The position numbers were made by a program, and so were the translations under genes. DNA of 64,000 nt from Candidatus Gastranaerophilales bacterium (GTDB lineage Bacteria > Cyanobacteriota > Vampirovibrionia > Gastranaerophilales > Gastranaerophilaceae): assembly GCA_016280955.1 (NCBI GenBank), contig JAEEHV010000038.1:2020-66019 (forward strand), in the 5' to 3' direction. Positions 15,245 through 57,914 of this stretch are shown here, piece by piece. The first letter of the stretch is position 1; every line of letters begins with the position of its first letter. The notes under the pieces were generated by a model. It searched no databases. It saw only the letters and a list, made by a program, of their open reading frames with translations, and had not been told where the DNA came from.

Positions 15245-16996
15245 TTAAACTTTTTGTTTAAATGCGTGTCCTTTTCTGTCTTGTTCAATGTTTGGAGTAT
15301 CTATTTCAAATACATAAGCATCACAAGGAGCAAGGTTTACTCTCAGCTCACCGTCAACAACCTGAAATTCACTCTTTTCACCATATTCAGGAACCATATT
15401 TTCAAGCTTCTGAGTTTTCTTTAATCCGGGAATTTCAATAATACCTGTTACATTTCTGTTTGGATTTTTATTTGCGACAACAAGTACCGTTCTTCCGTTG
15501 TTGTGTCTTGCAAAAGTTATAATCTGGTCATTCTTGTCATCACGTTTATCAAGTTCAATAAAACTGGAGTTTCTGTCGGCAAAAATATCTGTGTTTTTAG
15601 CCCTCATATTCAGGCAGCCTTTCATAATTCTTTCAATATCGGGTGAATTTCCTCCCGGTTTTCTGGAAAGATTAAATATGGCAAGTCTGAATCTGTGTTC
15701 TTCCATGTTTGTTTTATCGGTAAATGTTTCTTCGTTTGTAGTATTTCTGTACTTGTAATCATAATAATCACCGGACTGGAAACCGTCTACAAAGTACGGA
15801 TTACACATCGGTATTGTTGACTGCAGAACCGTTGTCATTTTACAGAAATTCTCACCGCCGTGAATCATTGAAGAACTGTCATCGTGTGTCAGGAAAGAAC
15901 CGATAAGACTTTTTCCTGCCGGTAATCTGTGTGACATATCAAGATTCATTTTAATATAGTTATTAAATTCTTCTGCATTTCTCCAGTCATGGAATATATG
16001 ATACTGACCGTAATAATCATCGAAACCTGCTCTTAACAAATCTTCCGGTCTGTCATAAGGCATATTTACCTGAGGAGAAGCACATTCATAAGTATAACTT
16101 TCTGCAAGCCATCCGAATTCAGGATCTTTGGTATGAGAATATGTAATTAGCTTATCCCAAAATTCTGTCGGTTTCGCACGTGCAACGTCAGCTCTTATTC
16201 CGTCAAGTCCGAGTTCTATGCAAGCATCTACGTATTGTTTGTGCATTTCATATAATGCAGGATTTAAAATTCTTTGAGTTTCATCTGCCCATGGCTCAAA
16301 CATTCTTATGTCAGCCCAGCCCTGCGGAGTTTTATCTTCGCCATTTCTTCCGAATGCCATTAACTCAGGTTCTGCTTCAAATAAATCTACCGAAGCACAA
16401 CTCGGTAAATCAAGCATTACTTTTATGTTACGTTTGTGGCATTCATCAATAAATGCTTTGAACTGTTCATTAGGAGTTCTCGGATCATCTTTTTCTATAA
16501 GCATCGGATCTATAGCTAAATCACCGTTGTCTTCAACAAATTTTAAAGGAGAGTATAGCGAACCTGCTGTTCCCATTGCATTTTTGTGTCCCGGCGGATG
16601 AATAGGAAGAATATGAATTGTATTAATGCCGTCTTCTTTTAATTCATCAAGCCTTGAAATTGCTCTTAAAAATGTTCCGACTTTTTCGCCTTTGCTTATG
16701 GTAACTTTATCATCACCGTTAACATCTTCTGCGGTAAAAGTTCTTGGTACCATTGCCAGCATAACCGATTCATTGTTTTGAATCATTGAACGCAGATTAT
16801 TTTTATAAGTTATGTTTTGTGTTTTTCCGGGGTTAACTTTTTTTACGGCAGGAGCATTAATCATTGCCAAGTTATCAAGATATTTTTGTGAAACTTTATT
16901 ATCCTGATTTTGGTTTTCTTTAATCGGAGCTGTTTGGTAGTTGTTACTTTCAGCACCTTTGAAAATAATTGAATTAATGCTAGATACTTTTATCAT
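15245..16996 (-). CDS. GH13 alpha-amylase family glycoside hydrolase
   Basis: Catalytic regions DGIRADVA, WLAESY and FLTHDD; C-terminal beta-sandwich. Confidence 0.88.
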   Translation of the reverse strand: MIKVSSINSIIFKGAESNNYQTAPIKENQNQDNKVSQKYLDNLAMINAPAVKKVNPGKTQNITYKNNLRSMIQNNESVMLAMVPRTFTAEDVNGDDKVTISKGEKVGTFLRAISRLDELKEDGINTIHILPIHPPGHKNAMGTAGSLYSPLKFVEDNGDLAIDPMLIEKDDPRTPNEQFKAFIDECHKRNIKVMLDLPSCASVDLFEAEPELMAFGRNGEDKTPQGWADIRMFEPWADETQRILNPALYEMHKQYVDACIELGLDGIRADVARAKPTEFWDKLITYSHTKDPEFGWLAESYTYECASPQVNMPYDRPEDLLRAGFDDYYGQYHIFHDWRNAEEFNNYIKMNLDMSHRLPAGKSLIGSFLTHDDSSSMIHGGENFCKMTTVLQSTIPMCNPYFVDGFQSGDYYDYKYRNTTNEETFTDKTNMEEHRFRLAIFNLSRKPGGNSPDIERIMKGCLNMRAKNTDIFADRNSSFIELDKRDDKNDQIITFARHNNGRTVLVVANKNPNRNVTGIIEIPGLKKTQKLENMVPEYGEKSEFQVVDGELRVNLAPCDAYVFEIDTPNIEQDRKGHAFKQKV

Positions 16997-57401: not shown

Positions 57402-57914
57402 ATGCAAGTTCAATCAATAAATACTGTTAACAGTAATACTGCTTTCGGTGCAAAACTGGTTTACGGTAGTTCATTCCGTAACAAAGCCCGTTGGAACAAT
57501 GTGGCTAAAATTTTTGAAGAACAAACGGAAAGATATCCGGACTATACTTTTAATATTTTTCATTACAAAAACGATAAGGGAGCAATTCGTTTTGATTATA
57601 CGTTTGATAGCAAAGAACGTTTTGTAGAGGATTTAGGTTATATAAAACCGAGGCTTGCAGCCCAATTGAGGAAATTATCCGACAGTGAGCTGGCAACTAA
57701 ATTAAAGAAATTATTTATTATTCAAAAAAATGCTGACAAATTGGAAGAAATGACATCAAATATTGCAGACAGATTTAATATTAATGAAACAATGCCTGAT
57801 GAATTTCAGTATAAATTTTGGAGAAATTTCTTTGATACAAAAAGAAATTATGTTAAAGTTCTGCTTGCGGAGGACAATCTTCTTTCCAGGCCAAATGCAA
57901 TAGAAATTCCATAA
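57402..57914 (+). CDS. hypothetical protein with N-terminal NxxxAFGA motif
   Basis: AAGGGG RBS before ATG 57402; no recognised domain. Confidence 0.7.
   Translation: MQVQSINTVNSNTAFGAKLVYGSSFRNKARWNNVAKIFEEQTERYPDYTFNIFHYKNDKGAIRFDYTFDSKERFVEDLGYIKPRLAAQLRKLSDSELATKLKKLFIIQKNADKLEEMTSNIADRFNINETMPDEFQYKFWRNFFDTKRNYVKVLLAEDNLLSRPNAIEIP

Follow-up and report, generated by a model that had tools for sequence, protein, structure and literature searches.

A Phe-box N-terminal leader with its own promoter defines a protein class in Gastranaerophilales and may act as a non-Sec targeting signal

Results

The subject of this study is a short N-terminal leader, built around a phenylalanine, that recurs on unrelated proteins encoded in a 64,000-nucleotide (nt) stretch of DNA (henceforth referred to as the window; C53:2020-66019, where C numbers denote contigs) from a metagenome-assembled genome of the Gastranaerophilaceae (Melainabacteria). 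The genome comprises 2.78 Mb in 93 contigs with 34% GC and an estimated contamination of 3.5%, and a crude gene call gave 2534 genes at a coding density of 88%. Its close relatives, as judged by matches to one protein of the genome, are titled Candidatus Gastranaerophilales, Gastranaerophilaceae or uncultured Candidatus Melainabacteria and are of gut and rumen origin. Five such N-termini had been named in an original prediction made from the window alone, and all of them are present exactly as described. On the minus strand, the operon running from 20610 to 15245 encodes a 356-amino-acid (aa) membrane protein, an 852-aa membrane protein and a glycoside hydrolase family 13 (GH13)-like enzyme; its first gene, for the 356-aa protein, which has no Pfam domain, starts with the leader MIKEVRLSDNSINFQA (20563-20610; score of 16.4 in the position-specific scoring matrix (PSSM) described below) and the GH13-like gene (15245-16996) with the leader MIKVSSINSIIFKG (16955-16996). 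On the plus strand, a four-domain M16 peptidase (38984/38990-41758) has the leader M(VM)KVTGVNNLFFRG (38984-39028), where the start at 38990 reads MKVTGVNNLFFRG and an alternative ATG lies two codons upstream at 38984; an internal copy of the motif, TDNISFKGN, occupies residues ~480-488 (40427-40453), in the hinge between the two halves of the protein. The remaining two leaders, also on the plus strand, belong to a 147-aa orphan protein without a Pfam domain (MDKINQNRINNMSFNG, 45768-45815, PSSM score 19.2) and to a 170-aa orphan protein (MQVQSINTVNSNTAFGA, 57402-57452, PSSM score 19.7; gene 57402-57914, with the Shine-Dalgarno sequence GGGG upstream). All five are polar and have no hydrophobic stretch of the Sec or Tat type, in line with the claimed absence of such signals. 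The proposed core, an N-terminal F-x-[GA], also stands, with its register corrected from N-x-x-F-x-[GA] to [SNT]-x-x-F-x-[GA], and the low-complexity linker said to follow it is found in the larger enzymes only and is not a general feature.

A loose regular expression run over the called genes revealed that the five leaders belong to a wider set of 49 proteins by a strict definition and ~100 by a loose or promoter-based one; examples of leader peptides are MQVQRIQNNNTAFCAKL and MIKVSSINSIIFKGAES. The consensus of 36 aligned leaders is M-[QK]-[IV]-x-x-[IV]-[NQ], followed by an Asn-rich stretch of 2-8 aa and by N-T-[NST]-F-[KRQN]-[GA], so that two boxes can be told apart: M-[QK]-[IV]-x-x-[IV]-[NQ] at the very start and a Phe box, N-T-x-F-[KRQN]-[GA], whose Phe lies at residue 9-17. 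When all proteins were scored with a nine-column PSSM anchored on F-x-[GA] at a threshold of 14 bits, 36 matches fell within the first 25 residues (7.8% of all positions) and 10 elsewhere; most of these 10 have an ATG 10-14 codons upstream and so reflect mis-called starts. After correction of starts, 40 N-termini (first ~30 residues) reached at least 14 bits, whereas shuffled N-termini gave a mean of 0.3 and a maximum of 2, and the motif is thus far more frequent at N-termini than composition would predict. In almost all of the 49 strict leader genes a Shine-Dalgarno sequence directly precedes the ATG. Conservation is lost sharply after the [GA], and the residue at position -2 is most often Lys (K19, G7, R6, Q6, N5). 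In the wider set, the first 20 residues contain twice as much Asn and Gln and half as much Asp and Glu as those of other proteins, and what follows the [GA] is polar or variable, with no hydrophobic segment. A hydrophobic N-terminal 10-mer occurs in only 4 of 106 regulon proteins compared to 414 of all 2534 (16%), and the regulon N-termini accordingly lack the hydrophobic h-region of Sec, Tat or lipoprotein signals. The leader is disordered and acid-poor, and its pattern of conservation in orthologues (see below) is that of a short linear motif under selection. We found no description of this class in the literature on Melainabacteria type III secretion or on Gastranaerophilales flagella. A hidden Markov model of the leader, searched across the order, gave 39 matches in this genome and 0-8 elsewhere, the model being too specific to this genome.

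Many of the leader genes share a promoter. Enrichment of k-mers upstream of leader genes, followed by a whole-genome scan with a position weight matrix (PWM), identified an element of ~30 nt, T[AG]GCAAA-AAATATTTTTAC-GGGTTTTA (that is, T[AG]GCAAA-N12-GGGTTTTA), whose scores are bimodal genome-wide, with 88 sites at or above 16 bits; the sites end 2-40 nt ahead of start codons. The strict leader is present in 17 of 70 promoter genes compared to 32 of 2464 others (odds ratio 24, p 1e-15) and a looser leader in 34 of 70 compared to 159 of 2464 (odds ratio 14, p 6e-21), and additional promoter genes have leaders that by eye appear degenerate (...SFG, ...NFKS or ...FQS). Sites that match the promoter pattern exactly number 42 in this genome, 2-23 per genome in 48 further members of the family and 0-1 in controls; outside the family the pattern is weaker yet present in some families of the order, and it is essentially absent from other orders. 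Across 80 loci in other genomes, the regulon PWM matched ahead of leader-like N-termini in at least 20 of 27 cases. Overall, these results strongly support the conclusion that a leader class with its own regulon is real in Gastranaerophilales. With 42 exact sites against 2-23 in its relatives, the regulon is expanded in this genome, which is also larger than those of the family relatives (1.6-2.3 Mb; 1.9 Mb for a genome of the same genus). Of 102 regulon genes, 31 belong to tandem clusters of small paralogues; tandem arrays of small paralogues that bear the leader and measure 100-420 aa lie at C88:100-5000, C18:3700-12700 and C53:74400-79000, and some of these paralogues have bilobed hydrophobic segments reminiscent of chlamydial Inc proteins. 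Within the window, a variant copy of the promoter, TAGCACAAAATTTGTTTTTACGTATTGTTTTA, lies at 57324-57355 (+) ahead of the gene for the 170-aa protein, and two degenerate copies that score under the PWM threshold lie upstream of the operon (TAGCAAA...TTTTTATATA, 20631-20665, minus strand) and of the M16 gene (CGGCAA...GGTTTTTATATA, 38948-38980, plus strand).

The architecture of the element, in which TAGCA and GGGT blocks lie ~13-15 nt apart, resembles that of the SigF promoter of Synechocystis, TAGGC(-32)/GGTAA(-12) (PMC2532724). SigF, a group 3 sigma factor, controls pilA1 and secretion-related genes in cyanobacteria (PMC2532724). As in SigF promoters, two blocks of the form T[AG]GCA...GG(G)T stand at a comparable short spacing, the element is distinct from both sigma-70 and sigma-28 promoters, and it is associated with a gene set of the surface or secretion type (PMC2532724); it differs from them in that the -12 block is GGGTTTTA and in that the spacer (AAATATTTTTAC) is itself conserved. 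The architecture therefore fits a group 3 sigma factor, and the genome encodes two small FliA-like sigmas, one of them beside flhB of the second export apparatus described below. The other (C77:79987-80622) is retained even by non-flagellate relatives. Another set, of ~30 genes, is preceded by the canonical sigma-28 consensus, TAAAGTTT-N11-GCCGATA[AT], and includes flagellin, FliD, giant proteins (6279, 3752 and 1502 aa) and a 949-aa protein of the window (gene 54104-56953, with its sigma-28 site at ~54050-54103). No leader was found in this set, flagellin and FliD included, and leader genes show no enrichment of sigma-28 promoters in front of them (1 of 49).

How the leader is distributed over homologues of the GH13-like enzyme suggests what it replaces. 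All 120 orthologues of this enzyme (78-85% identity) retain M-x-x-I-x-x-I...[IVL]-x-F-[RK]-[AGS], while the rest of the leader and the linker that follows it drift in sequence and length. Homologues at 30-42% identity instead have a classical Sec signal peptide immediately before the catalytic domain, as does a paralogue in the same genome (C39:11001-12548), which starts MIKKTAILIALLCSMSNLSYA. Pfam gives the enzyme only a sub-threshold Alpha-amylase_C match (E 5e-4), and 1 of the 120 orthologues has a precomputed PF00128 match. No orthologues were found in lineages without type III genes, where they were sought. Between the leader and the catalytic domain, a second motif, KYLDNLAMINAPAVKKV (residues 38-54; 16835-16885, minus strand), is shared by all 120 orthologues and missing from the paralogue with the Sec signal. 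In other orders, the family of the 852-aa membrane protein, whose gene in the window shares the operon, is fused N-terminally to a GH13-like domain (985-1082 aa; G180, G085 1033 aa); this fusion indicates that the membrane protein and the GH13-like enzyme act together.

A similar replacement is evident for the M16 peptidase. Its leader has K2, V3 and F11 invariant or nearly so in 45 orthologues, and a second four-domain M16 protein of the genome (on C70) has a Sec signal. Two normally exported enzyme families, then, each have one Sec paralogue and one leader paralogue in the same genome, which is most simply read as the leader targeting its proteins to another destination. The leader-bearing M16 protein has an intact HFLEH active site and is single-copy in 49 of 49 genomes of the family and in 60 of 61 of the order, and it is absent from other orders. 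It therefore co-occurs with the presequence class, as would be expected of an enzyme that processes it. The internal motif, [LVI]-[ST]-F-[KR]-G, is found in 112 of 120 orthologues at 52-60% identity, with F485 invariant and G487 conserved in at least 90%, after a spacer of 3-22 aa, and it is absent from the Sec-signal paralogue. In an AlphaFold2 model of the leader-bearing protein (pLDDT 83, pTM 0.79), long stretches of disorder are confined to residues 1-43, which include the leader (pLDDT 25-39), and residues 479-490, which include the hinge motif (pLDDT below 50). Since a motif conserved within a floppy linker would have to be read in trans, a protease or a docking surface is the expected partner. 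Structural relatives of the leader-bearing protein are PqqL, pitrilysin and FusC (periplasmic), plus IDE. Internal Phe boxes are not enriched in regulon proteins (1.5 vs 1.0 per 10,000 aa), and a search for split M16 genes with the leader on the second half returned only truncated gene calls. M16-type handling of presequences and leader peptides is known from MPP, SPP, PreP and PqqF/G, and by analogy with these the leader-bearing M16 protein is the best candidate for a leader-processing enzyme. Whether or not it is the enzyme, cleavage at the Phe box is possible, and we lean somewhat against it.

The downstream domains are unrelated, as had been claimed for the five proteins, and across the class include GH13-like, M16, AAA, GH77, PTP and AvrB folds. 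Pfam matches among leader proteins comprise the M16 peptidase, a GH77 4-alpha-glucanotransferase, a CheR methyltransferase and a DSP/PTP phosphatase; three leader proteins resemble PPDK_N or glucan-water dikinases (two by Pfam scan, the third by paralogy), two are membrane-anchored AAA ATPases, and weak DnaJ and transglutaminase signals were also seen. A leader-bearing 278-aa protein (on C66), which starts MRINSINCCNNYQPTFG, has an AvrB_AvrC domain (E 8e-12), a domain known from plant-pathogen type III effectors. No known domain is present in about half of the leader proteins; 46 of 106 are shorter than 200 aa, and transmembrane segments occur in 17% of bearers. The presence of ATP-dependent cargo argues against a simple digestive secretome, and such proteins would work in the cytoplasm of the cell itself or of another cell. 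Judged by its domains, the cargo looks effector-like. Its nearest precedent would be the glycogen enzymes that Chlamydia secretes by type III secretion (PMC4829429).

Two complete flagellar-type export sets are encoded in the genome, one of which is a full flagellum. The other (henceforth referred to as T3SS-2, for second type III secretion system) comprises FliE, FliF, FliH, FliI, FliJ, FliK, a FliN-like protein, FliO, P, Q and R, FlhA, FlhB and one FlgE/G-like protein; no recognisable FliG was found in this set. Its loci are window 797-3257, C81:20519-24776, C81:35978-42115, C35:29700-31094 and C6:2092-4055. The genes in the window (plus strand) encode FliJ-like (797-1285), FliK-like (1295-2428) and FlgE/F/G-like rod/hook (2421-3257) proteins, which match PF02050, PF02120 and PF22692, the first two under the gathering cut-off; their paralogues in the flagellar set lie on contigs C28 and C71. 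Directly upstream of them, at 3-695 (+), lies a gene for a leader-like protein, MYIYPNNSVKMSQPSYKG, in which Tyr replaces Phe and whose start is 141 nt before the window. Each of the 48 other family genomes has an orthologue of the T3SS-2 FlhA (FlhA2; C81:35978-38068) at 81-86% identity; identity falls to 60-69% in four further families and to ~45% in four more, and two of the families compared have no orthologue, whereas the flagellar FlhA (FlhA1) is missing from all 48 family relatives sampled. The FlhB of T3SS-2 (C6:2092-3165) is 86-94% identical in more than 500 contigs, and the FliA-like sigma gene follows it in 69 of 80 loci. Most Gastranaerophilales retain only a subset of flagellar genes (PMC4040986; bioRxiv 10.64898/2026.04.24.720558), and what the literature treats as a degenerate subset is a separate, paralogous system that in this genome coexists with a real flagellum. 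The 48 family relatives lack FlhA1 and keep both the promoter and FlhA2, so the regulon is maintained where flagella are missing and is in every case accompanied by T3SS-2. In eight other genomes, two of which have no type III genes, N-terminal F[KRQN][GA] was counted in samples of 200-400 kb and in none exceeded the internal control; as this held for a positive-control relative too, the census was under-powered. Another FlhA-related protein, encoded at C5:16039-17514, is a soluble 491-aa protein with a coiled-coil-like N-terminal part and only the cytoplasmic FHIPEP (FlhA C-terminal) domain; a second FlhA match corresponding to it is present in every genome of the family.

One further family represented in the window, by a protein at 13329-15197 (+) with seven paralogues elsewhere, is the MGMAASQARYLALTARK family, which has no Pfam match and in which conserved N- and C-termini flank a variable middle, a layout like that of flagellin. 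One of the paralogues (C28:92322-93308) has a sigma-28 promoter.

Discussion

The conservation of the leader on proteins whose homologues and paralogues have Sec signals makes it likely that it serves as a signal for targeting or export in one form or another. Export itself, its route and any cleavage of the leader are what we infer from these comparisons. The explanation that we consider the best overall, and put forward tentatively as somewhat short of probable, is a route through T3SS-2 on which the Phe box is a docking or processing motif. The leader would act as a non-Sec signal directing proteins to a destination other than that of the Sec route, and the regulon genes would be read from a dedicated promoter of the group 3 sigma (SigF/FliA-like) type. 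The FliG-less T3SS-2, kept by the whole order, would be the most likely path, with the cargo acting outside the cell or in another cell. The Phe box would be a short linear motif read by a trans-acting partner, which may be the export gate, a chaperone or the order-specific, leader-bearing M16 clam-shell peptidase, and the last of these may clip the leader off. T3SS-2 is the best candidate route for leader proteins, and its link to them is circumstantial. The notion of a lineage-specific export or chaperone-binding signal, put forward in the original prediction, is thus upheld indirectly, by a conserved, disordered motif that replaces Sec signals, and the flagellar route that was named for it is not.

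A considerable number of observations weigh against a route through T3SS-2. Regulon genes do not cluster near T3SS-2 loci (two within 10 kb, where 3.9 were expected), the regulon promoter was found ahead of none of the T3SS-2 apparatus genes, and no outer-membrane component of T3SS-2 was identified. The apparatus is phyletically wider than the crisp leader and the promoter and also occurs, with FlhA2 orthologues at 60-69% identity, in orders without a crisp leader, where GH13-like orthologues have Pro/Ala-rich extensions of 90-130 aa with no clear Phe box; moreover, the co-occurrence of leader and T3SS-2 is that of a single clade and counts as one evolutionary event. Both FliA-like sigmas are present in all 60 family genomes in which presence and absence were compared, and because both are kept by all relatives the promoter cannot be assigned to the T3SS-2-linked sigma. 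The leader genes in the window have degenerate promoter copies only. As regards the signal, a crisp consensus is unlike type III signals, and an internal Phe box in a hinge is unexpected for one that is purely N-terminal. Finally, the GH13-like and M16 orthologues are well conserved (35-85% identity) and look like housekeeping proteins rather than fast-evolving effectors.

An alternative is a leader that is chiefly a cleavage or recognition site for the M16 peptidase or another protease, which would remove the leader and cut its own hinge, translocation taking a route unrelated to T3SS-2 or not occurring at all. SFKG is invariant in the disordered M16 hinge and absent from the Sec-signal paralogue, conservation stops sharply after the [GA], and the distribution of the leader-bearing M16 protein is closer than that of T3SS-2 to the spread of the crisp leader and the promoter; the fold, with HFLEH intact, is the peptide-enclosing clam-shell of PqqL, IDE and pitrilysin. 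Yet the Phe box is unlike known M16 site preferences, other regulon proteins are not enriched in internal Phe boxes, no split M16 genes with the leader on the second half were found, and the coexisting Sec-signal paralogues stay unexplained unless a separate destination exists. As an account on its own we regard this as unlikely; it is compatible with, and not exclusive of, a T3SS-2 route. The broader idea of a protease-read leader, which had been raised by comparison with Prp cleavage after Phe in ribosomal protein L27, keeps the support of the hinge motif and loses its example: no match to Prp (PF04327) was found in the genome, where control genomes were positive, and L27, encoded by an 82-aa frame, already aligns at position 2 of the model and so has no N-terminal extension. 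Leaders of the double-glycine type cleaved by PCAT transporters resemble ours in being non-hydrophobic and N-terminal and in ending in Gly or Ala. They differ in having Gly at -2, where ours have mainly K, R, Q or N, and the C39 peptidase they depend on (PF03412) is absent here and from 27 of 31 family genomes, so that a known leader-peptidase system of either the PCAT or the Prp type has almost no claim on our belief. A type IV prepilin (class III) signal was also considered and rejected, as it needs a hydrophobic helix after the Gly of the cleavage site and none follows the [GA] of the leader.

It has also to be asked whether leader proteins leave the cell. A tag that tethers them to a cytoplasmic or membrane scaffold (such as the 356-aa and 852-aa proteins) or to a glycogen or polyglucan granule would suit the two AAA ATPases, the three dikinase-like proteins, CheR and GH77, all of which need ATP or cytoplasmic substrates, and it would also suit the fusion of the 852-aa family to a GH13-like domain in other orders, the 17% of bearers with transmembrane segments and the habit of docking motifs to be short linear motifs in disordered tails. 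We judge it decidedly improbable, given that homologues and paralogues of the GH13-like and M16 enzymes are Sec-exported, that the cargo is too diverse for a single scaffold, and that a dedicated alternative-sigma regulon of ~100 proteins, most of them orphans, is more in keeping with a secreted or effector set. That the leader has no sorting role, being the by-product of a mobile promoter-plus-5' cassette, of paralogy among small orphans or of an mRNA feature for translation initiation, would be in keeping with the tandem clusters (31 of 102 regulon genes), with promoter, Shine-Dalgarno sequence and leader travelling together and with A-rich codons. This is very unlikely, as the protein sequences keep Phe and Gly/Ala where neighbouring leader residues and the linker vary, and as the motif occurs on clearly unrelated folds and, in the M16 protein, as an invariant internal copy. 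Export by the flagellum proper (T3SS-1), which the original prediction considered the obvious candidate, could appeal to the complete flagellar gene set in this genome and to a leader start, M-x-I-N-x-[IV]-N, that recalls the N-termini of flagellin and FlgM (a local FlgM-like protein reads MEIIKPQ...ITAFKN). However, all 48 family relatives without FlhA1 keep the promoter, and in them the leader genes that were checked (GH13-like, M16 and other promoter-driven genes) keep their leaders, so that the correlation of the leader with flagellar genes expected from this idea fails; in addition, the sigma-28 consensus lies upstream of 1 of 49 leader genes and the late regulon it marks, with flagellin and FliD, is without the leader. 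We accordingly give the flagellum very little credence as the exporter.

Returning to a route through T3SS-2, three known systems offer comparisons. Rod and hook subunits of type III systems have a bipartite signal, with a hydrophobic extreme N-terminus and an FxxxPhi gate-recognition motif bound by FlhB. To our knowledge, known type III signals have no sequence consensus. The leader is like them in being N-terminal, disordered, rich in Asn, Ser, Thr and Ile, acid-poor, uncleaved by signal peptidase and borne by unrelated cargo, and the setting is alike in its FliA-like alternative sigma for cargo and in a flagellar-type gate present in every genome of the family; unlike them, the leader places its Phe only 9-17 residues from the Met and has a functional-looking internal copy in one protein, and the candidate apparatus, through which secretion would be putative, is without FliG. 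Organellar presequences are processed by the M16 proteins MPP, SPP and PreP, bacterial M16 leader peptidases include PqqF/G and AlbE/F, and plastid transit peptides have Phe-based motifs (FGLK; an N-terminal Phe in glaucophytes and red algae). The resemblance is in an acid-poor, disordered targeting peptide on many proteins and in an M16 peptidase that bears the same peptide. The direction, export rather than import, and the translocon differ, and the leader does not follow the R-2/R-3 rule of MPP; homology is not claimed and cleavage of the Phe-box leader is presumptive. In Chlamydia, Inc membrane proteins and enzymes of glycogen metabolism carry N-terminal type III signals and function beyond the bacterial cell (PMC4829429; PMC6717882), and the leader is likewise found on GH13-like, GH77 and dikinase-like enzymes and on transmembrane proteins. 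Unlike the leader, the chlamydial signals are not a conserved motif and serve an injectisome instead of a flagellum-derived gate, and no host or partner cell is known for gut Gastranaerophilaceae.

The most far-reaching form of the preferred explanation is a Gastranaerophilales protein-delivery system in which a Phe-box presequence on ~100 effector-like proteins and enzymes of a SigF/FliA-like regulon, ATP-dependent and starch- or glycogen-mobilising ones among them, would direct their exit through T3SS-2, probably into or onto another cell, with trimming by a co-delivered M16 peptidase. Taken as a whole we think it unlikely; the flagellum would then have given rise independently to an injectisome-like system whose signal is defined by sequence, in parallel with the targeting logic of plastids and mitochondria.

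If the leader is a signal for export or delivery, it would be without precedent among type III-like signals in having a recognisable consensus, and the substrate set of an uncultured gut lineage, ~2-4% of each proteome, would become predictable from sequence. A role would at the same time be found for the leftover flagellar genes of non-motile Gastranaerophilales (PMC4040986; bioRxiv 10.64898/2026.04.24.720558). An acid-free Phe presequence together with an M16 peptidase, in the sister group of the cyanobacteria, bears on the origin of organellar targeting logic, and the 15-residue tag and the 30-nt promoter are practical handles that can be tested in reporters. The AvrB-like domain, the phosphatase, the AAA ATPases and the glycogen and starch enzymes hint at the manipulation of another cell, which would change the ecological view of these bacteria.

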